Part shown: piece by piece, positions 1 to 29,615 of the stretch | How the letters are laid out: each line of letters starts with the position of its first letter | How positions within the stretch are numbered: position 1 is the stretch's first letter | Source: Haloferax volcanii DS2 | GTDB lineage: Archaea > Halobacteriota > Halobacteria > Halobacteriales > Haloferacaceae | Direction of reading: 5' to 3' | Length of the DNA: 32,000 bases | NCBI RefSeq assembly: GCF_000025685.1 | Contig: NC_013966.1 | Coordinates: 540,001 to 572,000 of the forward strand | Notes under the pieces: generated by a model | Database searches by the model: none | What the model was told of the DNA's origin: nothing | Seen by the model: the letters and a program-made list of their open reading frames with translations, nothing else | Made by a program: the position numbers and the translations under genes

Positions 1-1791
1 GTAGGTCACGTCGAGCGGGTCGCGCTCGACCACGGCGGTCGCCCGGACGTTGACGAGTTCGACCGGGTCGTCGAGGCGGTAGCCGTAGGCGCTCTCGTGA
101 GCCTCGTGGAACCGCGCTTCGACCGCCTCGGCGTCGAACGTCTCGCCGACGGGGACGGTCAGTTCGAAGCTCTGACCGACGTACCGGAGGTCGGCGGCGC
201 GCCGGACCGCCGCGTCGTCGGGGTCGGTCACGTCGTCGAGCGTGTCGGCTTCGAGGTCGGCGTAGGCGGATTCGACCGCTTCTGCGTCGAGGCCGGAAAG
301 CGGTCGGCGGAGCGTCCGCACCGAGTCGTGTTTCTGGTCGGCCGCGAGCAGGCCGTACGCCGAGAGGACGCCGCAGGCCCGCGGGACCGCCACGGTCTCG
401 ATGTCGAGGCTCTCGGCGAGGGCGGCGGCGTGCATCGGCCCGGCACCGCCGAAGGCGACGAGGCCGAACTGCCGCGGGTCGCGGCCGCGCTCGACCGTCA
501 CGGCCCGAATCGCCCGCGTCATGTTGGCGTTGGCGACGCGGTAGACGCCGCGAGCGGCCGCGAGCGCGTCGTCCAGTCCGGCGTCGGCGGCGAGGCCGGA
601 GAGCGCGTCGCGGGCGGCGTCCACGTCGAGCGAGAGTTCGCCGCCGAGGGCGGAACTGCCGCCGATGTAGCCGAGGACGACGTTCGCGTCGGTCACGGTC
701 GGTTCGGTCCCGCCGCGGCCGTAGCAGGCCGGACCGGGGTTCGCCCCCGACGAGCGCGGCCCGACCCGGAGCGCGTTGCCCGAGTCGACCCACGCGATGG
801 ACCCGCCGCCCGCGCCGACGGTGTTCACGTCCACCATCGGCGTCTTGATGGGCCGGCCGTTGATTTCGGCGTCGGTGGTCCGCTCGACCTCGCCGTCGCG
901 GACGAGGCTCACGTCGCTGGAGGTGCCGCCCATGTCGAAGGTGACGAGGCCGGCGAGGTCGCCGCCGGAGCCGGTCGCGGTCTCCGCCGCGCCGACGACG
1001 CCCGCGGCCGGCCCGGACATCGTGGTCGTCACGGCGTGCTCGCGCACGGTCGACGCCGGGGCGATACCGCCGTTGGCCTGCATTATCTGAGGGACCGGGA
1101 CGCCGAGGTCCGCGGCCCGCGATTCGAGGCGGCCGAGGTAGCTGTCGATGGCCGGCGTCACGTAGGCGTCGACCGCGGTGGTCGAGGTGCGCTCGAACTC
1201 GCGGAACTCGGCGAGCACCTCGTGGGACGCGGAGACCGGCGCGTCGAGTTCCTCGCGGAGCACGTCGGCGACGACGCGCTCGTTTTCGGGGTGCCGGTAG
1301 GCGTGCAGCAGCGAGACGGCGACGCTCTCCGCGCCGGCGTCGCGGATGTCGTCTGCGAGCGCCCGGACCTCCGACTCGTCGACTTCGGTCTGGATGCCCT
1401 CGACGGTCGCCCGCTCCGTCACCTCGAACCGGCGGCGGCGCGGGACGAGCGGGGCGGGCTTGTCCGCGGTCACGTCGTAGAGGTCGGGTCGGGCCTGTCG
1501 GCCGATTTCGAGCACGTCGCGGAACCCCTCGGTGGTGACGAGCGCGGTCGTCGCGCCGTCGTCTTCGAGGAGGGCGTTGACCGAGACGGTCATCGCGTGG
1601 GTGAACGCGTCGACCTCGGCCGGGTCGATGCCGGCGTCGTCGCAGGCCCTCTCGATGCCGCGGACGACGCCGACGCTCTGGTCGTCCGTGCTCGGGACCT
1701 TCGCGGTGACGAGGCGGCCCTCGGGAGTCAGAAGCGCCACGTCGGTGAACGTGCCGCCGACGTCGACGCCGATTCGCGTCTCTGTGTCCAT
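1..1791 (-). CDS. hyuA: Hydantoinase/oxoprolinase family protein, A subunit (HyuA-like); C-terminus lies beyond the left window edge
   Basis: Absent from the ORF track because it has no stop inside the window. My translation of the minus strand from ATG 1791-1789 reads MDTETRIGVDVGGTFTDVALLTPEGRLVTAKVPSTDDQS...EGFRDVLEIGRQARPDLYD...FDMGGTSSDVSLV...VNTVGAGGGSIAWVD...PGPACYGRGG...FGGAGPMHA. These are typical hydantoinase_A/oxoprolinase blocks. The frame stays open to position 1. ORF 97..1824 (+) is its antisense shadow. The ATG overlaps the stop of the upstream NRAMP gene (TGATG). Confidence 0.9.
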   Translation of the reverse strand, partial: MDTETRIGVDVGGTFTDVALLTPEGRLVTAKVPSTDDQSVGVVRGIERACDDAGIDPAEVDAFTHAMTVSVNALLEDDGATTALVTTEGFRDVLEIGRQARPDLYDVTADKPAPLVPRRRRFEVTERATVEGIQTEVDESEVRALADDIRDAGAESVAVSLLHAYRHPENERVVADVLREELDAPVSASHEVLAEFREFERTSTTAVDAYVTPAIDSYLGRLESRAADLGVPVPQIMQANGGIAPASTVREHAVTTTMSGPAAGVVGAAETATGSGGDLAGLVTFDMGGTSSDVSLVRDGEVERTTDAEINGRPIKTPMVDVNTVGAGGGSIAWVDSGNALRVGPRSSGANPGPACYGRGGTEPTVTDANVVLGYIGGSSALGGELSLDVDAARDALSGLAADAGLDDALAAARGVYRVANANMTRAIRAVTVERGRDPRQFGLVAFGGAGPMHAAALAESLDIETVAVPRACGVLSAYGLLAADQKHDSVRTLRRPLSGLDAEAVESAYADLEADTLDDVTDPDDAAVRRAADLRYVGQSFELTVPVGETFDAEAVEARFHEAHESAYGYRLDDPVELVNVRATAVVERDPLDVTY

Positions 1792-3008
1792 CAGAACACC
1801 CCCATATCGGTCGCGACCGTATAGAGCGTTCGGAGGCCGAGCCAGACGACGACGAGCGTCACCAGCCCGCCGACGACGTTCTGGAGCGTGGAGTTGGCGT
1901 ACGACCCGAGGATGTCGCGGTCGTTCATCACGTAGATGAGGAAGACGGCGACGATGGGAAGCAGGACGCCGTTGGCGACCTGCGCGAAGACGATGGCCTG
2001 CACGGGGCTGTATCCGACCGCGGAGAAGACGATGCCGACGAGCAGAATCGAGCCCCAGACGGCGCGGAACTTCGTGGACTGGAGGTCGGTGTCCCAGCCG
2101 AGCGCCCCCGCCGTCGCGTACGCGCCGGCCAGCGGGGCGGTCGTCGCGCTGGTGAAGCCCGCGGCGAACAGCCCGATGCCGAAGAACACCTTCGCCTGCG
2201 TGCCGACGAGCGGTTCGAGCTGTTCGGCCATCGTGCTCACGTTCTGGATGTTCGTCCCGACGGGGAACGCCGCCGCGGCGGTGACGAGAATCGAGATGGT
2301 GATGAAGCCGCCGAGGACGATAGACAGAACCGTGTCGGCCCGCGACTCGTTCAACTCCTCGGGGCCGGCCCACCGCTCTTGGACGCTCCCGGCGTGGAGA
2401 AAGAGGTTGTAGCCGACGACGGTCGTCCCGATGAGGCCGGTGATGAGGAACGCCGACCCCTCCGGGACGCTCGGGATGAACCCGCGGGCGAGCGCGCCGA
2501 GGTCGGGGCCGATGAGGATGGCGTCGATGAGGAAGGAGACGGCCATGATGGAGACGAGGCCGACCAGCGCTTTCTCGATGAGTTTGTACTTCCCGGACCA
2601 CAGGAGGACGCCGGCGACGAGACCCATCGCGGGCCCCCAGAGGTTGGCGCTGATGCCGGTCAGCCCCTCCAGTCCGGCCGCGCCGCCGAGGATGTTTCCG
2701 GTCTCGTAGGCGGCCGTGCCGACGCCGATGGCGCTCACGACGAGGGCGATACTCAGTCCCGACAGCGCGGGGCTGTCGAACTGCCCCCGGAGCGCCTCCC
2801 CGAGGCCCTCGCGGGAGACGAGGCCGAGTCGGGCGCTCATCTCCTGCAGCACGATAGTGGCGACTATCGAGAAGGCAATCGTCCAGACGAGCGCGTAGCC
2901 GAATCGCGCGCCCGTCACGCTCGCGGTCGTGACCGTTCCGGGACCGATGAACGCGGCGGCGACCATCGCGCCCGGACCGATAGATTTCAGACGTTCGATG
3001 AAGTTCAT
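1791..3008 (-). CDS. mntH: NRAMP-family divalent metal (Mn2+/Fe2+) transporter
   Basis: Starts at an internal Met of ORF 1791..3917. MNFIERLKSIGPGAMVAAAFIGPGTVTTASVTGARFGYALVWTIAF... is the NRAMP N-terminal signature, followed by about 11 hydrophobic segments (405 aa). The upstream 303 codons of the ORF are Arg/Ser/Pro-rich and overlap the RHH gene in another frame, so they are rejected. A TATA-like ATTTAT lies at 3051-3056. Confidence 0.9.
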   Translation of the reverse strand: MNFIERLKSIGPGAMVAAAFIGPGTVTTASVTGARFGYALVWTIAFSIVATIVLQEMSARLGLVSREGLGEALRGQFDSPALSGLSIALVVSAIGVGTAAYETGNILGGAAGLEGLTGISANLWGPAMGLVAGVLLWSGKYKLIEKALVGLVSIMAVSFLIDAILIGPDLGALARGFIPSVPEGSAFLITGLIGTTVVGYNLFLHAGSVQERWAGPEELNESRADTVLSIVLGGFITISILVTAAAAFPVGTNIQNVSTMAEQLEPLVGTQAKVFFGIGLFAAGFTSATTAPLAGAYATAGALGWDTDLQSTKFRAVWGSILLVGIVFSAVGYSPVQAIVFAQVANGVLLPIVAVFLIYVMNDRDILGSYANSTLQNVVGGLVTLVVVWLGLRTLYTVATDMGVF

Positions 3009-3198
3009 GGTTCTACCTGTGAGGTGGATTGACGTATCAAACTCTGATTGATAAATCCCGGTTGAGAACGCCGAGTACGGCGCGAAGAGCGCGTACGAAG
3101 GAGTATGAACGAGTATGAAGCTAGCGGCGGGCGTGGACCGACAACCGAGTCCGGAAACCAGCGTCCGAGTCCGGTCGGGTCCGCGCCGGACGCGGCCC

Positions 3199-3744
3199 TC
3201 ACCGGACCTCGGTGAGAAGCACCTTCGAGACGCCCTCTTCGACCTCGATATCGAACGGGGACTGCTCGGTGCTGAGCGCGATGAACCGCGACATAAACCA
3301 CTTGACGGACTCGGTGGGAAAGACGACGTGGAAGGTGTCGCCCTCGGAGGCGCGGACCGTGAGAAAGCCGCAGAACGACAGCCAGTCGAGGAGTTCAGCC
3401 AGCGACTCGAATCGGTCGCGATACTCGTGGGCGTGGAACGCCGCGACCCGGTCGATGGCGTCGAGAAACTCGGGAGCCGGCTCGCCGTCGTCGCCCTCCA
3501 CGTAGTCGAGAAACGTGTGCAGGAAGTCCACGTCGAGAAGGACGTGCTCGCCGCTCGACAGCATCTGGTGGTAGGCTTCGAGGTTCGGCCCGGCGTCGGT
3601 CGTCGCCGCCTCGAAGTTGGCCGCGTAGAAGACGAGCGCCTCGCGGACGAGTTCGCTTTGGGCCTTGTCGGTCCGGCCGGCGAGCCCGTCGAGCGCCGAC
3701 TGAGCGTCCTCGTCGAGCGACACCGTGACGCGATTCGTGACCAT
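3199..3744 (-). CDS. Ribbon-helix-helix (CopG/Arc/MetJ-like) domain protein with a ~130-aa C-terminal domain of unknown function
   Basis: 181-aa acidic ORF. The N-terminus MVTNRVTVSLDEDAQSALDGLAGRTDKAQSELVREALVFYA fits the beta-strand/helix/helix RHH pattern. The C-terminal domain contains FHAHEY and a Cys (SFCGF). It has the same orientation as the NRAMP-hyuA pair and lies directly upstream of it. Confidence 0.75.
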   Translation of the reverse strand: MVTNRVTVSLDEDAQSALDGLAGRTDKAQSELVREALVFYAANFEAATTDAGPNLEAYHQMLSSGEHVLLDVDFLHTFLDYVEGDDGEPAPEFLDAIDRVAAFHAHEYRDRFESLAELLDWLSFCGFLTVRASEGDTFHVVFPTESVKWFMSRFIALSTEQSPFDIEVEEGVSKVLLTEVR

Positions 3745-3847: not shown

Positions 3848-4519
3848 TTAGAAATTGAGACGACGGCGACGGGTCAGTCCGCCGTCGCGGTGCTCGCTCC
3901 CGCCGGCTTCGAAGCACTCCTCTGGCGAGCGGTCGTCGGGAAGGCCGTCGCCGTCGTCCTCGACGTAAAAGCCGTCGTGGGTCCGACCGACGGTCACCGT
4001 TACCTCGGAGCCGCCGTGGTCGACGAACGCGTCGTTGACGTACTCGAAGCGGCCGCGCTCGTCGACGACGTACACCGGGTAGCCGAGCGCTTCGAGAACG
4101 GTTTCGTAGCGCTCCGCCCGGCGGGTCGCCCGGTGTTCGGAGACGCTGTTTTCGATGCGGTTGACGAGCAGTTCGTACTGCTCGGAGGAGGGCTGTTTCT
4201 GGAGGTAGTCGGTGACGCCCGCGGAGATGGCGTCGCTCGCGACTTCCTCGCTCCCCTTGCCGGTAAAGAGGATGAGGGGAAGCGAACCGTGGTCCTCGCG
4301 AACCGTTTCGAGGAGTTCGACCCCGGTCATCGCCGGCATGTCGTAGTCGCTGACCACGCAGTCGATATCGGAATCACGAACGATATCGAACGCGACCCTC
4401 GGGTCCGAGCACGTCGTCACCTCGAACGAAGAGAGCTTTCGAAGGTACGTCTCGCCGAGGTCCAAGAGCGCCGCGTCGTCGTCGGCGTAGACGACGCGAG
4501 GGGATTCCGAGGTCGTCAT
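3848..4519 (-). CDS. Response-regulator receiver protein with remnant PAS and HATPase_c fragments (decayed hybrid kinase)
   Basis: 223 aa. The REC domain is canonical: YADDD, VVSDYDMPAMTG, LILFTGKG, DYLQK. The start of a PAS fold (YPVYVVDERGRFEYVNDAFVDH) then joins directly to a HATPase_c G1-G2 stretch (VTVTVGRTHDGFYVEDDGDGLP...FEAGGSEHRDGG). No HisKA H-box or N-box is present. The ORF ends in AT-rich sequence. A TATA-like TTTATA lies about 30 nt upstream of ATG 4519. Confidence 0.85.
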   Translation of the reverse strand: MTTSESPRVVYADDDAALLDLGETYLRKLSSFEVTTCSDPRVAFDIVRDSDIDCVVSDYDMPAMTGVELLETVREDHGSLPLILFTGKGSEEVASDAISAGVTDYLQKQPSSEQYELLVNRIENSVSEHRATRRAERYETVLEALGYPVYVVDERGRFEYVNDAFVDHGGSEVTVTVGRTHDGFYVEDDGDGLPDDRSPEECFEAGGSEHRDGGLTRRRRLNF

Positions 4520-4687: not shown

Positions 4688-5944
4688 TCAGAACTCGCCG
4701 GCGACGATGTCGGTGACGCGCTCGCGGTCGAACAGCCGTTCAGCCTCGGGAATCTCGGGGTACGACTCGCCGTCGCCGTAGCCGGGCCACGCGCCGAACC
4801 GCTCGGGGAAGAGCTGTTTGGCGGTCATCTCCAACTGGAACAGGTTCATAATCGGGCCCTGCATCCCGTTGCCGGACGGGTAGTACCGGCCGTCGCGGAA
4901 CGCGGGCACCTCGTCCGCGAGGGGGTTCGAAAGCACCTCGTCGCGGTTCGAGCGGAAGGTGTCTCTGAGCGCGGTCCCCCAGTACCGGAGGACCACGTCG
5001 GGCGCGGTCTCGACCATCACCTCGTAATCGTACGAACCGTCCGACCCGGTCTGGGCGTCTGTCGTCGCAAACGCGTTCTGCATCCCGAACGGGCGGAGGT
5101 GCGCCCAGAGGTAGCCGTCCCCCGTGAAGTCGTACGGCCAGAACGTCCCGCCGGTGTCGGCGACGACCGCGAGCGACGGGCGCTCGGACGCCGGTGGGAG
5201 GTCGGCCCGTATCCGGGCGACGAGGTCGTCCCGGAGGGACCTGAACGCCCGGTAGCGCTCTTCCTCTCGGAACACCGCCGCGATGTGGCCGAGGTACTCC
5301 CAGAGCGTATAGTGCTCGTAGCGGTCGCGGCAAGGCTCGGGCGGGTCGGCGTTCGTCCGGCTGTAATAGTTGCCGAACCACGGACCCACGTCGGCCGCGA
5401 TTGACGCCACCTCGCCTTCGGTCCAGTCGAACGAGGGACTCCGGAGCAGACACGGGTCGAGGAAGTGCACGTCGCTGTCCAGTTCGTAAAACAGCTCTCT
5501 GTCGAGGGCGTTCGGGTTCGACGCCGGCGTAACGCGGCCGAGTTTCTCCCACTCGAACTCCACGCCGTCGAGCGCGTCGTAGTAGTAGTCGACCGTGTTG
5601 CCGAACAGCTCCTTGTCGTAACCGATGCCGGTAATGGCGTCGCCGTGGCCGAAGGCGACCGCCGCGTCGGCCGAGACCGGGTAGTAAGTCAGAGCGCGTT
5701 CCGGCACGGCGTCGAACTCGACCTCACCGACCGGGGCCATCGACACCGAGTACGACCCGTCGCTCGTCTCAGTCGCTTCTTCGGTATCCGTCTCAGTCGT
5801 CGAGACGGCGTCAGAAGTAGTGGTCGTCGCGTCGGAACCCCCGCCCGCACAACCCGCGAGGAGTCCCCCGCCGAGGACCGTCCCGCCGAACTTCACGTAG
5901 TCCCGGCGAGTCGGCCCGGACCGACAGTCATCGTTGTCTGCCAT
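4688..5944 (-). CDS. ABC-transporter periplasmic substrate-binding lipoprotein, iron-siderophore/cobalamin type (Peripla_BP_2-like), paralog 1
   Basis: 418 aa. Tat motif (PTRRDYVKFGG), lipobox (LLAGC) and a Thr/Asp/Glu-rich linker. The C-terminal block QGPIMNLFQLEMTAKQLFPERFGAWP is shared with the ORFs at 19953..21179 and 21274..22509. The family call is from memory of haloarchaeal binding proteins and has not been searched. Confidence 0.85.
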   Translation of the reverse strand: MADNDDCRSGPTRRDYVKFGGTVLGGGLLAGCAGGGSDATTTTSDAVSTTETDTEEATETSDGSYSVSMAPVGEVEFDAVPERALTYYPVSADAAVAFGHGDAITGIGYDKELFGNTVDYYYDALDGVEFEWEKLGRVTPASNPNALDRELFYELDSDVHFLDPCLLRSPSFDWTEGEVASIAADVGPWFGNYYSRTNADPPEPCRDRYEHYTLWEYLGHIAAVFREEERYRAFRSLRDDLVARIRADLPPASERPSLAVVADTGGTFWPYDFTGDGYLWAHLRPFGMQNAFATTDAQTGSDGSYDYEVMVETAPDVVLRYWGTALRDTFRSNRDEVLSNPLADEVPAFRDGRYYPSGNGMQGPIMNLFQLEMTAKQLFPERFGAWPGYGDGESYPEIPEAERLFDRERVTDIVAGEF

Positions 5945-5947
5945 ATT

Positions 5948-5997
5948 TTTAGGCCAGCATAAAAAAATAAAACTGCTTCGTTTTAGGTATGCCTAAA
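5948..5997 (-). promoter_or_regulatory. Promoter of binding-protein paralog 1: two TTTAGG-N4-CCTAAA palindromes flanking a TATA-like box
   Basis: TTTAGGccagCATAAA at 5948-5963 lies 3 nt from ATG 5944. The perfect palindrome TTTAGGtatgCCTAAA lies at 5982-5997. The A/T run at 5961-5972 (TTTTATTTTTTT on the minus strand) spans about -17..-28. Confidence 0.7.
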
Positions 5998-10261: not shown

Positions 10262-10849
10262 TCAGCGCCGGGCGATGAGGTCGCGCGAGATGTCGGCGCG
10301 CTCGTAGACGGCTCCGTCGTGCGCGTCGGCGAACGCCTCGGCGTCGCCGTCGTCGGAAAAGGGGACGAAGTCGGGACCCATCGACCCGTTGACATCGGTT
10401 CCGACGACGTAGACGAGGTCGTCCATCGGCGCGAACGCGTCGGCGTCGAGGTGCGCGGAGATGAACGTCTGGCCGCCGTCGTCGAACAGGTCGTACTCGA
10501 CAGTGCTGTAATCCGTGAGGTAGCCGCCGGCGCGATTCCACCCGTCGTCCTCGCGGTCGAGCGCGTAGGAGAACGTCTCCCAGGCGCTACAAAACCGCGC
10601 CGGGTTGTCGTGACCCTCGGGGCTGTGGTCTGCGTAGAACAGTTGCCCGGCGGGGCCGGGGTGCTGGTCGATGACCATCCCGCAGGCGTCGCACTGCTCG
10701 CCGCCGGTCAGTGCGACTGCCTCGGGAGCGTCGCCACCGCCGTCGGTTCCGAGACCGCCCAGACACCCTGCGGTGGCGGCGACGCCCGCGACACCGACGG
10801 CAGACAACACGGTTCGACGAGCGACGGTTCGGTCGCAGTCGTGGCACAT
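10262..10849 (-). CDS. nosL: NosL-like copper-chaperone lipoprotein
   Basis: Tat signal and lipobox (ARRTVLSAVGVAGVAATAGC), then the NosL-type CDACGMVI motif and a FCS segment. ATG 10849 is preferred over the TTG at 10876. Confidence 0.8.
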   Translation of the reverse strand: MCHDCDRTVARRTVLSAVGVAGVAATAGCLGGLGTDGGGDAPEAVALTGGEQCDACGMVIDQHPGPAGQLFYADHSPEGHDNPARFCSAWETFSYALDREDDGWNRAGGYLTDYSTVEYDLFDDGGQTFISAHLDADAFAPMDDLVYVVGTDVNGSMGPDFVPFSDDGDAEAFADAHDGAVYERADISRDLIARR

Positions 10850-11017
10850 ACGCCAAGCTAGTTGGGGGGTGCTCAAATGGTGATTGGTGCGGAAAACGAA
10901 CCAAGCGCCGGACGTGTGGTCAGCCCGTCACGTTCCGTCCGAGTCGATGACGCCGTGGCTCGGCACAGTCGCCACGGGGTCCGCGGTCCGCGCCCCCGGC
11001 GACGCGTCGCGCGTACG

Positions 11018-15607: not shown

Positions 15608-17146
15608 ATGACGACGCCGACCCTCCTCGTCGCGGGGACCGCGAGCCACGTTGGCAAGAGCACCGTCGCCGCCGGGCTCTGTCGCCTGTTCGACGACCGC
15701 GGCCTGTCGGTCGCGCCGTTCAAGGCCCAGAACATGAGCAACAACGCCCGAGCGGTGGCGACCGCCGACGGCGACGGCTTCGGGGAAATCGGCGTCTCGC
15801 AGTACGTGCAGGCCCGTGCCGCGCGGGTCGCGCCGACGACCGACCACAACCCCGTCTTGCTCAAGCCCCACGGCGACGGGGCGTCGCAACTGGTCGTCCA
15901 CGGCCGGGCGGCCGGCCTCAACACCGCGAGCGACTACTACGCGACCCACTGGGAGGACGCCCGCAAGGCGGCGGTCGAATCGCACCGTCGGCTGGCGAGC
16001 GAGGCGGACGTGGTCGTCGCCGAGGGGGCCGGCTCCATCGCCGAGATAAACCTCCACGACCGCGACTTGGCGAACATCGAGACCGCCCGCTTCTCCGACG
16101 CCGACGTCCTCCTCGCGGCCGACATCGAGCGCGGCGGCGTCTTCGCCAGCCTGCTGGGGACGCTCGAACTCCTCCCCGAGGACGTGCGCGACCGCGTCGT
16201 CGGCGCGGTCATCACGAAGTTCCGCGGCGACCCGAGCCTCCTCGAACCGGGGGTCGACGCCATCGAGGAGCGAACCGGCGTGCCCGTCCTCGGCGTGCTT
16301 CCCTACGACGACCCCGGCCTCCCGGAGGAGGACAGCCTCGCGCTCCCCGCGGCAGGCGAGCGCGCCACCGTCGGCGACGACGACGGCGTCGCGGCCGAGC
16401 ACGCGGTCACCATCGGCGTGCCGCGACTCCCGCGCATCTCGAACGCGACGGACTTCGGCCCGCTGTCCGAGACGCCGGGCGTCCGGGTCGCCTACCTCCC
16501 GCTCGACGCGACGCTCGACGGGGTCGACGGGGTGGTCCTCCCCGGAAGCAAGAACACGGTCGACGACCTGCTCGCACTCCGCGACGCCGGCTTCGACGAC
16601 GAACTCGCCGGCTTCGACGGCCCGGTCGTCGGCATCTGCGGCGGCTACCAACTGCTCGGCGAGCGTATCGAAAACGCCGACATCGAGGGCTCGGGAGACG
16701 ACGAGACGGTCGCAGGACTCGGTCTCTTGCCGATAGTCACGCGATTCTCCCGCGACAAGCGGGTCGAACCCGTCTCCGTCGAGTTCGACGGGGCGGGACC
16801 GTTGGCCGGCGCGACGGGGACCGTCGACGGCTACGAGATACACATGGGCGACAGCCGCATCGTCGGCGGTGCGACCCCCGTTTCGGGCGACGGCGCGGCG
16901 CTCGGGAGCGTCGCGGGGACGTACATCCACGACCTGTTCGCCAACGACGCGCCGCGGAACGCGTTCGTGGACGCCATCTACGAGTCGGCCGGGCGCGACC
17001 GGCCGGCGACGACGACGGGGACGGCGGGAGCCGACGCGGACGCCGACGAACCGGGTGCCGGCGACCCCTACGACCGCGCCGCCGCGCTCGTCGCCGACAA
17101 CCTCGACGTGGCGGCGCTCTGTGACTCGCTCGGACTAGAAGAGTAG
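15608..17146 (+). CDS. cobQ: Cobyric acid synthase
   Basis: 512 aa. The N-terminal P-loop-like block is [23 protein letters not shown]...[10 protein letters not shown]. The C-terminal GATase block is [13 protein letters not shown]...[10 protein letters not shown]...YEIHMG. Confidence 0.95.
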
Positions 17147-19952: not shown

Positions 19953-21179
19953 TCAGTCGCCGGTGACGATGCCGGCGACGCGCTCGCGGTCGAACAACCG
20001 CTCGCCCTCGGGAATCACGGGATACGCACCGCCGTCGTACGCCGGCCACGCGCCGAAGCGGTCGGGGTAGAGCTGTTTCGCCGTCATCTCGGTCTGGAAC
20101 AGGTTCATAATCGGCCCCTGCACCGGGGTTCCCGAGGGGTAGACGCGGTCGTTTCGGACCGCGCTGAGTTCGCCCCCGACGGGGTGGTTTTCGAGGGTCT
20201 CGCGAATCGACGCCACGTCGTAGTACGAGTCGATACCGTAGCTGTGGAGCAGCACGTCGGGGTCGATTTCGAGCATCGCCTCGAAGTCGTAGGAGGTCTC
20301 GAACGTCACGTCGCCGGCCGCGAACGCGTCGGTGACGCCGAGCGGGCGGATGTGCGAGGTCGCGAAGCCGGGTGCGTCGATTTTCGTCGGATAGAACGCC
20401 TCGTCCATGTAGATGACGACCCCGACGCTCGGTCGCTCCGACTCGGGGGGGAGGTCCGACCGAATCGTGTCGAGGAGGTCGCTGTGGACCGCTTCGAGCG
20501 CCGCGTAGCGGTCTTCCTCCCGGAACACCTGCCCGACGTTCTCGACGATTTCCCAGAGCGTGTAGTACTGGTAGTCGTCGGCGTACGGCTCTGGCGGCCG
20601 GGCGTGGGTACGGCTGTAAGCGTTACCGAACCACGGCGCGACCTGCTCGCGAATCTCCTCGACGTCCGACTGGTCCCAGCCGTCGAAGCTGGCCACGAGC
20701 GCCGGGTCGACGAGGTGGAGGTCGGAGTCGAGTTCGTAGACGAGTTCCTTGTCGATGTTGACGCTCCCCGACCCCGAGTTGAGCTGCGCGAGGTCGCTCC
20801 GGTCGAACGAGACGCCGTCGAGGCGCTCGTAGTAGGCGTCGAGCGTCCGGCCGCCGGCGTCGCTGTCGAAGCCGAGGGAGTTCACCGCGTCGCCGTGGCC
20901 GAAGGCGACCGCGGCGTCGGCGTAGACGAGGTTGTACACCATCACATTCTCCGGGACCGACTCGAACGTCACGTCGCCGGCCGGCGACATCGACACCGTG
21001 TAGCCGGCGGCGTCGCCGTCGGCGGCCGTCGTCGCGGCCGTCTCGGTCGCATCCGTCGACGACTCCGCGTCGTTCTGTCCGGCACAGCCGGCTAACAGAC
21101 CGCCCGCGAGCAGCGCGCCGCCGCCCTTGAGGCACGCGCGGCGCGTGGGCGTCGCCCGGTCGGTGAGGTCCTGATCCAT
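19953..21179 (-). CDS. ABC-transporter periplasmic substrate-binding lipoprotein (Peripla_BP_2-like), paralog 2
   Basis: Starts at the internal Met of ORF 19953..21272: MDQDLTDRATPTRRACLKGGGALLAGGLLAGCAG (Tat signal plus lipobox). It aligns with paralogs 1 and 3 along its full length. The upstream 31 codons are AT-rich promoter sequence. Confidence 0.88.
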   Translation of the reverse strand: MDQDLTDRATPTRRACLKGGGALLAGGLLAGCAGQNDAESSTDATETAATTAADGDAAGYTVSMSPAGDVTFESVPENVMVYNLVYADAAVAFGHGDAVNSLGFDSDAGGRTLDAYYERLDGVSFDRSDLAQLNSGSGSVNIDKELVYELDSDLHLVDPALVASFDGWDQSDVEEIREQVAPWFGNAYSRTHARPPEPYADDYQYYTLWEIVENVGQVFREEDRYAALEAVHSDLLDTIRSDLPPESERPSVGVVIYMDEAFYPTKIDAPGFATSHIRPLGVTDAFAAGDVTFETSYDFEAMLEIDPDVLLHSYGIDSYYDVASIRETLENHPVGGELSAVRNDRVYPSGTPVQGPIMNLFQTEMTAKQLYPDRFGAWPAYDGGAYPVIPEGERLFDRERVAGIVTGD

Positions 21180-21182
21180 GCG

Positions 21183-21267
21183 TTTGGGCAATCCTAAACG
21201 GATAAATCCGTTTCGGAGTTTCGGCGTGCCTAAATCGGTACGTCTATATGTATTAGGTCGCCCTAAA
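21183..21267. promoter_or_regulatory. Divergent promoter with three TTTAGG-N4-CCTAAA palindromes and two TATA-like boxes
   Basis: TTTGGGcaatCCTAAA at 21183-21198, TTTCGGcgtgCCTAAA at 21219-21234 and ATTAGGtcgcCCTAAA at 21252-21267. AAACGGataaatCCGTTT (21196-21213) wraps the minus-gene TATA. TATATGTATTA (21245-21255) serves the plus gene. Confidence 0.75.
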
Positions 21268-21273
21268 AGCACG

Positions 21274-22509
21274 ATGACAGACAGCGACGGACCAACGCGC
21301 AGGAAGTTCTTGACCTACGGCGGTTCGGTCGCCGCCGGCGGATTGCTCGCCGGCTGTACCGGTTCGTCCGAGTCGGACGCGACGGCGACGGACGCGGCCG
21401 CGACGGATACCACCGCGACCGCCGACGCGACGGCGACGAGCGAGTCGACCGCGGAGTCGACGGCCGACGGCAGTTCGTACACGGTGTCGATGGCACCGAT
21501 GGGCGACGTGACGTTCGAGGGCGTCCCCGAGAGCATCTTCACGCGGCTAACCCACCACGCGGGGATGGCGTTCGCGCTCGGCCACGGCGACGCCGTCAAC
21601 GCGATGCACGCCCCCGACTACTACGACGCGCTGTGGAACCAGTTCACGCCGCGTCTCCCCGGCGTCGAACTCGACTGGACCGGCCTGTACTCGTCGTGGG
21701 AGCCGTCGAAAGAGCGGCTCTACGAACTCGACAGCGACGTGCATCTGGCCGACCCCGCCAGCGTCTCCGCGCTCGGCAGTTGGAGTCAGGCCGACCTCGA
21801 CGAAATCGAGGAGAACATCAGTCCGTGGTTCGGCAACAGCTTCAGCGCGCGGCACCAAGCGCCGCCGACCGAGTGGGTCGACGCCTACGAATACTACGGC
21901 CTCTGGGAGATATTCGCCAAGGTCGCACAGGTGCTCCAAGCGGAGGCGAAGTACGAGGCGCTCGCCGCGGTCCACGAGGAACTGCTCGCGACGATTGCGG
22001 CGGACCTCCCCGCGGAAGAAGACCGGCCGACCGCCGTGCTTCTCGGCCCGAGCGACCTGGAGTCCATCTACGCCTACAACCTGAGCACGCCCGGATTCCT
22101 GACCGCCCACACCCGCCCGCTGAAGCCGGTCAGCGCGTTCGGCGACGACGTCGAGTCCGGGTCGACCGTCGACTTCGAAACGCTCCTCGAAGCCGACCCC
22201 GACGTGATTCTCACGCTCGGCGGGATGCACCCGAACACGAGCATGCCCGACATCCGGACGGGATTCCAGGACGACCCCGTCGGAGCCGAGATTTCGGCCG
22301 TGAAGAACGACCGCATCTACGCGCAGGGCGGCCGCTACCAGGGACCGATACTCAATCTGTTCCAGTTGGAGATGACCGCGAAACAGCTCTCCCCCGACCG
22401 CTTCGGCGCGTGGCCCCAGTACAGCGAGGGACCGTACCCCGAGATTCCCGAGGAGGAACAGCTGTTCGACCGGCAGCGCGTCGCCGACATCATCAACGGG
22501 AACCTCTGA
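21274..22509 (+). CDS. ABC-transporter periplasmic substrate-binding lipoprotein (Peripla_BP_2-like), paralog 3
   Basis: Starts at the internal Met of ORF 21178..22509: MTDSDGPTRRKFLTYGGSVAAGGLLAGCTG (Tat signal plus lipobox). A Thr/Ala/Asp linker follows, and it carries the conserved C-terminal block QGPILNLFQLEMTAKQLSPDRFGAWP. Confidence 0.88.
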   Translation: MTDSDGPTRRKFLTYGGSVAAGGLLAGCTGSSESDATATDAAATDTTATADATATSESTAESTADGSSYTVSMAPMGDVTFEGVPESIFTRLTHHAGMAFALGHGDAVNAMHAPDYYDALWNQFTPRLPGVELDWTGLYSSWEPSKERLYELDSDVHLADPASVSALGSWSQADLDEIEENISPWFGNSFSARHQAPPTEWVDAYEYYGLWEIFAKVAQVLQAEAKYEALAAVHEELLATIAADLPAEEDRPTAVLLGPSDLESIYAYNLSTPGFLTAHTRPLKPVSAFGDDVESGSTVDFETLLEADPDVILTLGGMHPNTSMPDIRTGFQDDPVGAEISAVKNDRIYAQGGRYQGPILNLFQLEMTAKQLSPDRFGAWPQYSEGPYPEIPEEEQLFDRQRVADIINGNL

Positions 22510-22539
22510 GCCGGCGACCGGCGGTACTGGCGCGCCCGC

Positions 22540-24126
22540 TCAGCCGGAGAGCCCGGCGTCCGCGATGGCCGCGCGAATCGCGCCGAACCGAACGAGGTCG
22601 GCCGCAGTCTCCAGTTCGCCGTCGAGCCGGCGGTCCTCGTCCAGCGGCGGAACCACGGACCGAATCGCGTCGCGGACGGCCCCAGTGCCGGTCCCGAGTT
22701 CGAGGCCCTCGTCGAGGAACTCGGCGGCTTGCGACCCACAGAGGAGTTCGACGCCGACGATGGTCGCGACGTTCTCGGCGACCGTGCGGGCGTTGAGGGC
22801 GCTCTGGCCGCTCATGCTCACGTGGTCTTCCTGCCCGCCGCTGACGGGCGTCGAGTCGATAGAGGGGCGACCGAGCGACCGACACTCGTTGAGGAGCGCC
22901 GCGGCGGTGTACTGCGCAATCATGTAGCCGGAGCGGAGCCCGCTGCGTTCGGTCAGGAACGGCGGGAGATACGACTCCTGTACGTCGGGGTTGAGCATCC
23001 GGTCGGTCCGGCGCTCGGAGATGGCCGCGAGTTCGGTCAGCGCGCCGGCGGCGTAGTCGAGGCGGAGCGCCAGCGGTTCGCCGTGGAAGTTGCCGGCGGA
23101 GACGACGGCGGCCACGTCGGTGCCGGGCGCGCGCTCGTCCACCGCGCCCGCCGGGAAGACGAGCGGGTTGTCGGTGACGCTGTTGAGTTCGACCTCGACG
23201 GCCTCGCGGAGGTGCGAGACGGCGTCTCTGACCGCGCCGTGGACCTGCGGGAGACAGCGAATCGAGTAGGCGTCCTGCACGCGCTCGCAGTCCTTGTGCG
23301 ATTCGAGGACGGTCGAGCCGGCGGTGAGGCGGCGAATCGCGGCCGCGCTCTCTTGCTGGCCGGGGTGAGGACGAACCTCGTGGATGGCGGGGTCACAGTT
23401 CGCCGTGGTTCCCATCGTGACTTCGGTCGCGAGCGCGCCCGCGGCGTCGGCGGCCTCGATTGTTCGCTCGGCGTCGACGACGAACAGCGCGGCGAGGCCG
23501 ACCGTCAGTTGCGTCCCGTTGATGAGCGCGAGACCTTCTTTGGAGGCGAGCGTTACCGGCTCCAAACCGACCGCTCGCAGGGCTTCGTCGCCCGGCAGTC
23601 GCTCGCCGCCGACGCGGGCTTCGCCCTCGCCGATGAGGACGAGCGCCATGTGCGCGAGGGGTGCGAGGTCGCCGCTCGCGCCGAGGCTCCCGCGGGAGCG
23701 GACGACCGGCTGGACGCCCTCGTTGAGCATCGAGACGAGCAGGTCGACAACCGAGGGTCGGATACCCGAAAAGCCCTTTACGAGCGTGTTGGCCCGACTG
23801 ACCATCATCGACCGGACCTCCTCGCGGGTGAGTTCGCGGCCCGCGCCGGCGGCGTGGCTCCGGACGAGATTCGTCTGGAGGCGCTCGATGTCCTCGCGGT
23901 CGATGTGCGTCTCGACGAGGTGGCCGAAGCCGGTGTTGACGCCGTACACCGGTTCGCCGGAGTCGAGGACGGATTCGACGCGCTCGCGCGACTCGCGCAT
24001 CCGCTCTCGCGACTCGGCGGCGAGTTCGACGGGTGCGTCGTGGCGTGAAACGGCGGCCACGTCCTCCGGCGTCAGCGACTCGCCGTCGAGGACGACCGAG
24101 TCGGGGAGGCCTGCGCGGTCACTCAC
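22540..24126 (-). CDS. hutH: Histidine ammonia-lyase
   Basis: 528 aa with the MIO-forming GSLGASGDLAPLAH motif and full-length HAL-like sequence. The GTG start at 24126 overlaps the hutI stop by 8 nt (GTGAGTGA). Confidence 0.96.
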   Translation of the reverse strand: MSDRAGLPDSVVLDGESLTPEDVAAVSRHDAPVELAAESRERMRESRERVESVLDSGEPVYGVNTGFGHLVETHIDREDIERLQTNLVRSHAAGAGRELTREEVRSMMVSRANTLVKGFSGIRPSVVDLLVSMLNEGVQPVVRSRGSLGASGDLAPLAHMALVLIGEGEARVGGERLPGDEALRAVGLEPVTLASKEGLALINGTQLTVGLAALFVVDAERTIEAADAAGALATEVTMGTTANCDPAIHEVRPHPGQQESAAAIRRLTAGSTVLESHKDCERVQDAYSIRCLPQVHGAVRDAVSHLREAVEVELNSVTDNPLVFPAGAVDERAPGTDVAAVVSAGNFHGEPLALRLDYAAGALTELAAISERRTDRMLNPDVQESYLPPFLTERSGLRSGYMIAQYTAAALLNECRSLGRPSIDSTPVSGGQEDHVSMSGQSALNARTVAENVATIVGVELLCGSQAAEFLDEGLELGTGTGAVRDAIRSVVPPLDEDRRLDGELETAADLVRFGAIRAAIADAGLSG

Positions 24127-29437: not shown

Positions 29438-29615
29438 TGTCGTTTAGGGCGGTTTAGAAACACATTTACAAACCAAGTACCCAATGTCGGGTTCTTTGAA
29501 TAAACTGTATATTGTTTATAAGACGATCAATCCCTCGGGGGAACCGCGACGCCGACAACCGGAACCGTCGTTCCGCAATCGTAACCCATTGGTAGCAGGT
29601 CGGTGTACCGTGGGT

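Follow-up and report, generated by a model that had tools for sequence, protein, structure and literature searches.

Palindromes between the divergent genes hvo_A0557 and hvo_A0558 of Haloferax volcanii plasmid pHV4 are very probable operators of the DtxR-family iron sensor TroR

Among the described systems, the one closest to the locus studied here is the regulon of TroR (HVO_0863), the Haloferax volcanii iron sensor of the DtxR family. The TroR ChIP-seq motif, TTTAGGC-NNN-CCTAAAANAN, was reported in all 32 of the peaks used, many of which contain more than one copy (PMC10783522, Martinez-Pastor et al., NAR 2024). The promoter P_hvo_B0047 carries two such motifs in tandem with a spacing of about 30 bp, each of which is sufficient on its own for iron-dependent repression (PMC10783522). 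Among the zoomed TroR peaks on pHV4, the legend of Figure 4A of the same study lists 'hvo_A0557-8, Fe3+-hydroxamate ABC transporter; hutH' (PMC10783522). On the uptake side, one ATPase and two permeases of Hfx. volcanii stand against 11 paralogous binding proteins (PMC11349517). The protein HVO_A0557 was found to be 7.0-fold up under iron starvation, while HVO_A0558 is not among the binding proteins for which that proteome shows an increase above 4-fold (PMC11349517). For binding-protein genes, including that of HVO_A0557, an upstream 'DtxR binding motif I' or 'ferR regulon signal' is described there, following a prediction of Leyn & Rodionov 2015 (PMC11349517). Neither the locus as a TroR target, nor the motif, nor the induction of HVO_A0557 by iron starvation is new; all have been published.

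The present analysis covers a 32-kb stretch of DNA, hereafter the window, in which the hvo_A0557/hvo_A0558 intergenic region of plasmid pHV4 is a spacer of 94 bp (21180-21273) with a GC content of 0.48, compared with about 0.68 for the window. The spacer is bounded by the start codons of two divergent genes (CAT at 21177-21179 for the minus gene, ATG at 21274 for the plus gene), both of which encode Tat-lipoprotein substrate-binding proteins with a Peripla_BP_2 domain (PF01497). Judging from gene order, we infer that the minus-strand gene (19953-21179; 408 aa; exact protein ADE01767.1) is HVO_A0557 and the plus-strand gene (21274-22509; 411 aa; exact protein ADE02022.1) is HVO_A0558. A third Peripla_BP_2 paralogue of 418 aa is encoded on the minus strand at 4688-5944 (exact protein ADE01739.1); its Pfam match (E = 5e-6) is just below the gathering score, and it aligns with the family and shares 40% identity with the plus-strand protein. 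All three paralogues have a twin-arginine signal and a lipobox cysteine in addition to the Peripla_BP_2 domain. Database names of homologues are Fe3+-hydroxamate or ferrichrome substrate-binding protein, and the products of the genes flanking the spacer are probably iron-siderophore binders. Right behind the lipobox cysteine, both of these proteins have low-complexity linkers rich in Thr, Ala, Asp and Ser (encoded at 20990-21090 and 21360-21470).

No gene for an ABC permease or ATPase is adjacent to the binding-protein genes, and downstream of the plus-strand gene comes hutH, encoded on the other strand. Positions 20274-23509 of the window have an exact counterpart in AOHU01000019.1, a draft contig of strain DS2 (assembly GCA_000337315.1). 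On the syntenic plasmid of Hfx. alexandrinus (98% identical), a gene for an 'HVO_A0556 family zinc finger protein' is followed by two binding-protein genes and then by hutH, hutI, hutG and hutU; the minus-strand gene differs from its orthologue there by a 7-codon length change (408 vs 415 aa). The other genes of the window include those for an Nramp transporter, a CopG-type protein, a response regulator, a TetR regulator, NosL, a histidine kinase, cobQ, an MFS transporter, the hutHIGU operon and an HTH_10 regulator. In agreement with a preliminary description of this DNA, which had noted that the window encodes no DtxR-family regulator, none was detected among the 26 window ORFs scanned or in the annotated syntenic 37 kb.

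That description had also reported three copies of the palindrome TTTAGG-N4-CCTAAA in the spacer, with no more than one mismatch in the 12 specified positions, and both the sequences and the positions were confirmed, each copy having exactly one mismatch. The first site, S1 (21183-21198; TTTGGGcaatCCTAAA / TTTGGGCAATCCTAAA), is the proximal site of the minus-strand gene and covers -19..-4 relative to the ATG. The second, S2 (21219-21234; TTTCGGcgtgCCTAAA / TTTCGGCGTGCCTAAA), is the distal site common to both divergent genes (-55..-40), and its centre at 21226.5 is, as had been claimed, the exact midpoint between the two start codons. The third, S3 (21252-21267; ATTAGGtcgcCCTAAA / ATTAGGTCGCCCTAAA), is proximal to the plus-strand gene, at -22..-7 of the ATG. 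The outer sites do lie between a TATA-like box and a start codon, with S1 and S3 immediately downstream of ATAAAT (21202-21207) and TATAT (21245-21249), respectively. Two further copies precede the third paralogue: a proximal site S4 (5948-5963; TTTAGGCCAGCATAAA; -19..-4) and a distal site S5 (5982-5997; TTTAGGTATGCCTAAA; -53..-38), the latter being a perfect match. Within the window the sites of a pair are spaced 36, 33 and 34 bp apart, and all five are located no more than 55 nt from the start codons of the three Peripla_BP_2 Tat-lipoprotein genes.

Since the spacer is AT-rich, as archaeal promoters are, palindromes of this kind could in principle be chance products of base composition or parts of a basal promoter that no dedicated regulator recognises. 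The preliminary description held chance to be very unlikely in such GC-rich DNA, and the counts bear this out: allowing up to two mismatches, TTTAGG-N4-CCTAAA has 5 matches in the 32-kb window vs 0.04 expected, and 5 matches were reached in 0/100 shuffles. A weight matrix derived from 83 training sites, taken solely from genera other than close Haloferax relatives, separates the five sites (17.2-28.3 bits) from every other position of the window, the next-best of which scores 2.6 bits; the 95th percentile of the null maximum is 13.2 bits. The individual scores are 17.2 (S1), 22.8 (S2), 20.8 (S3), 23.6 (S4) and 28.3 bits (S5), S1 being the weakest of the five, with a G at position 4 that is absent from all 83 training sites. 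No other AT-rich intergenic stretch of the window exceeds 2.6 bits, so that a similar motif density in unrelated spacers is not seen. In addition, the half-sites are conserved across dozens of genera while the 4-bp spacers vary freely, and a BRE and a TATA box are separately recognisable between the sites. The chance or basal-promoter explanation is refuted by conservation and statistics, and the probability left to it is negligible.

The best sub-threshold match, TTTAGGGCGGTTTAGA at 29443-29458, lies in the intergenic spacer that separates a glyoxalase-family gene from the gene of an MFS transporter; with one good half-site it reaches 2.6 bits, falls below the null distribution and is probably due to chance. 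Upstream of the Nramp, NosL and cobQ genes, the hut operon and the regulators of the window, the matrix found nothing above 2.6 bits.

The palindrome of the window is the published TroR ChIP-seq motif, the five sites having 0-1 mismatch to TTTAGG-N4-CCTAAA, and occupancy by TroR at hvo_A0557-8 is known from a published ChIP-seq peak. The earlier suggestion of a DtxR-family metal-responsive repressor as the binder is thereby supported, and the three palindromes of the spacer are very likely operators for TroR. At least one of the flanking genes, HVO_A0557, has moreover been reported to respond to iron. Hfx. volcanii possesses three DtxR-family factors, TroR, Idr and SirR, and it might be argued that the sites are bound mainly by one of the other two paralogues, or by several of the factors, rather than by TroR, the more so as orthologous uptake genes of Halobacterium salinarum have been assigned to Idr1 (PMC10783522; PMC11349517 supplement) and an earlier comparative study gave the signal a different name, 'ferR regulon'. 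Against this stand the derivation of the motif from TroR peaks and the reported mutant phenotypes, P_hvo_B0047 repression being lost when troR is mutated but retained in the idr and sirR mutants, while SirR was linked to manganese uptake by the authors (PMC10783522). Predominant binding by Idr or SirR, or by several of the factors, seems improbable.

A further alternative, a cobalamin- or corrinoid-responsive regulator, had been left room for in the preliminary description. The Pfam family Peripla_BP_2 includes both iron-siderophore and B12 (BtuF-type) binding proteins, cobQ (cobyric acid synthase; 15608-17146, plus strand) lies 4 kb from the palindromes, and cbiCE, elsewhere in the genome, is among the TroR peaks (PMC10783522). 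However, the palindrome is the motif of an iron regulator, HVO_A0557 is responsive to iron starvation, and the region upstream of cobQ in the window has no TroR-type site. The corrinoid proposal therefore found no backing, and a regulator of this type is highly improbable.

Two other regions of the window deserve mention. The NosL-family gene (10262-10876, minus strand) has no TroR-type site above 2.6 bits anywhere near; its counterpart HVO_A0549 was 13-fold up under iron starvation (PMC11349517), and in the case of a gene with no such site nearby, induction would need another route. The region of the Nramp divalent-metal transporter (1791-3744, minus strand), with a CopG/ribbon-helix-helix gene (3199-3744) in front and a response-regulator/PAS gene (3848-4519) also preceding the transporter gene, is without a TroR-type motif in the window scan. 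Binding of SirR at an mntH promoter has been reported (PMC10783522).

Conservation in orthologous promoters was assessed in 80 loci with relatives of the plus-strand protein, drawn from species-representative genomes of many haloarchaeal genera. In 58/80 loci the motif (no more than 2 mismatches) is found in the 300 bp in front of the gene, and these upstream regions hold 108 matches in 26.4 kb vs 56 in the remaining 533 kb. In 17 of the other 22 loci the sole matches are found elsewhere, more than 1.2 kb upstream or downstream; most of these 17 have a motif pair about 1.2-2.5 kb upstream with a same-strand paralogue in front, and the distant pair seems to head a tandem array of paralogues. 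As for the motif-less loci, four (L031, L048, L052, L056) belong to arrays of 3-5 paralogues that may begin beyond the fetched flank, and one (L079) is a contig of 2.9 kb that ends too early. The scan reproduces the 'ferR regulon' signal upstream of binding-protein genes, i.e. the 'DtxR motif I' of Leyn & Rodionov 2015, which has been described as a conserved DtxR-type site upstream of all haloarchaeal fhu-type binding-protein genes or operons (PMC11349517). Outside the Hfx. volcanii group the genes form same-strand tandem arrays of 2-5 paralogues, with an operator pair only ahead of the first gene. Among the compared loci, the divergent arrangement with a common middle operator is confined to the Hfx. 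volcanii/gibbonsii/denitrificans/chudinovii group, the arrangement being tandem elsewhere.

Within the genus, S2 and S3 are matched with one mismatch in 9/9 Haloferax sequences, at -55 and -22, respectively, and the half-sites of S3 are invariant. S1 is decaying in part of the genus: its first half-site reads TTTGGG in DS2 and Hfx. alexandrinus, and the counterpart in Hfx. gibbonsii, prahovense, Q22 and marisrubri is TTTAGCCA.T.CC.A, with 2-3 mismatches.

The 44 distinct non-Haloferax promoters with 36-bp spacing yield the consensus TTTAGGcnngCCTAAA-aATCGgAAC-ggtTATa-ntgn-TTTAGGcnAGCCTAAA-annATG. Across genera, the two operators begin near -55 and -19 relative to the start codon, the modal spacing of 36 bp being found in 31/50 pairs, and the start codon follows 2-5 nt past the proximal operator. 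The stretch between the operators fits the haloarchaeal BRE motif CGAAA and TATA motif TTWT (PMC4983044). Leaderless transcripts make up 72% of those of Hfx. volcanii (PMC4983044), and the short distance from the proximal operator to the start codon fits leaderless transcription; geometry alone suggests that the transcripts in question may be of this kind. Taken together, the compared sequences show a fixed layout, namely an operator at -55..-40, BRE/TATA, an operator at -19..-4 and a start codon in the position typical of leaderless genes.

In the window, the minus-strand promoter reads TTTAGGCACGCCGAAA-CTC-CGAAAC-GG-ATTTAT-CCG-TTTAGGATTGCCCAAA-CGC-ATG and represents the canonical unit. Its putative TATA box (21202-21207, minus strand; ATTTAT, -28..-23) is assigned from the cross-genus consensus between the operators and the haloarchaeal 'TTWT', and its putative BRE (21210-21215, minus strand; CGAAAC, -36..-31) from the haloarchaeal 'CGAAA' and the cross-genus CGgAAC. 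The promoter of the third paralogue, in which S5 and S4 enclose a predicted core at 5967-5980 (minus strand; BRE CGAAGC at 5975-5980, TATA TTTTAT at 5967-5972, both placed by the cross-genus layout), is another canonical unit. A variant with an operator spacing of 33 bp is found in front of the plus-strand gene, whose predicted TATA box (TATAT, 21245-21249, plus strand; -29..-25) is invariant in the 9 Haloferax sequences. The divergent promoter of Haloferax consists of two of these units placed back to back with the distal operator in common, and its mirror symmetry would follow from this fusion.

The perfect inverted repeat that had been pointed out around the TATA box of the minus-strand gene, AAACGG-ataaat-CCGTTT, is indeed present at 21196-21213, yet it did not hold up as a significant or separate element. 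An equally good inverted repeat arises in about 14% of spacer shuffles, its inner pairs are broken in Hfx. denitrificans and Hfx. chudinovii with no compensating change, and the same promoter stretch in other genera lacks it, containing just BRE (CGgAAC) and TATA. The repeat is composed of the BRE region (cGAAACGG, minus strand), CCG and the first TTT of S1, and results from the BRE (CGAAAC) lying directly against the flank of the operator.

The mechanism most favoured by the evidence is repression by TroR in an iron-dependent manner. When iron is sufficient, metal-loaded TroR dimers would occupy the sites, presumably one dimer per 16-bp site, because the centres of the two TTAGG/CCTAA half-sites to be read are 10 bp apart. 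The proximal operator, located between TATA and the start codon, would also cover the transcription start if the transcripts are leaderless, as the geometry suggests, and the distal operator, just upstream of the BRE, would complete the bracketing of the core promoter, the exact BRE and TATA assignments being putative. Bound TroR may keep TBP/TFB and/or RNA polymerase off the promoter, either step being a candidate for the one blocked, and the two substrate-binding-protein genes as well as the third paralogue (4688-5944) would be shut off. When iron is scarce, apo-TroR would depart and the genes would be expressed.

It is conceivable, though doubtful, that the rigid layout of operator, BRE/TATA, operator and start codon is a functional unit in itself, in which two DtxR-type dimers, one on either side, clamp the TBP/TFB site. 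If so, one central dimer in Haloferax would serve two divergent promoters at once, a bacterial-type metal repressor would be provided with a defined architecture for shutting an archaeal core promoter, and the published description of a motif 'about 100 nt upstream' would be refined. Such a layout may already be documented in Leyn & Rodionov 2015 or in the TroR supplementary tables. A modest addition is represented by the cross-genus bracketing of BRE/TATA at fixed positions and by the common-operator reading of the divergent promoter. On the whole, a reading of the letters alone recovered a genuine element with experimental support and assigned it to the correct family of regulators, although the biological gain is small.

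The preliminary description had likened TTAGG-N4-CCTAA to the DtxR/IdeR iron box, and the resemblance is substantiated by the 14-bp consensus TTAGGNNNNCCTAA proposed for a single dimer in a structural study of IdeR (PMC8464063): S3 and S5 match it exactly, and S1, S2 and S4 have one mismatch each. In the classic iron box, four overlapping CCTAA repeats form a 19-bp palindrome (TTAGGTTAGSCTAACCTAA) that binds two dimers (PMC8464063), whereas the window sites have two repeats each and an extra conserved T/A at either end. Their spacers (caat, cgtg, tcgc, ccag, tatg) are without the inner TTAG/CTAA repeats, and the sites do not qualify as classic 19-bp boxes; across genera, the 4-bp operator spacer is poorly conserved. 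Multiplicity in the window is instead achieved by separate sites 33-36 bp apart, and the promoter is, unlike that of the bacterial iron box, of the archaeal TBP/TFB type. The half-site TTAGG/CCTAA and the 4-bp gap are the same as in the bacterial DtxR/IdeR box, and so is the logic, that of a metal-loaded repressor of iron uptake.

Among archaeal regulators, MDR1 of Archaeoglobus fulgidus, a DtxR homologue reportedly described by Bell et al. in 1999, is said to have an operator array at or after the TATA box and to repress by blocking polymerase recruitment. Its operator sequence and arrangement are reportedly unlike those of the window sites. As in the window, the TroR operators of P_hvo_B0047 are of the form TTTAGG(C)-N3/4-CCTAAA, occur in several copies about 30-36 bp apart and belong to iron-uptake promoters. 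According to the abstract of the TroR study, the motif is situated about 100 nt upstream of start codons (PMC10783522), as compared with -4 to -55 in the three promoters of the window; in the 44 promoters of other genera the sites are likewise located no more than 55 nt from the start codon and bracket BRE/TATA. The common middle operator and the fixed -55/-19 bracketing of BRE/TATA are not spelled out in the main text of that study (PMC10783522). With regard to the TroR operators as described there, nothing essential differs at this locus.
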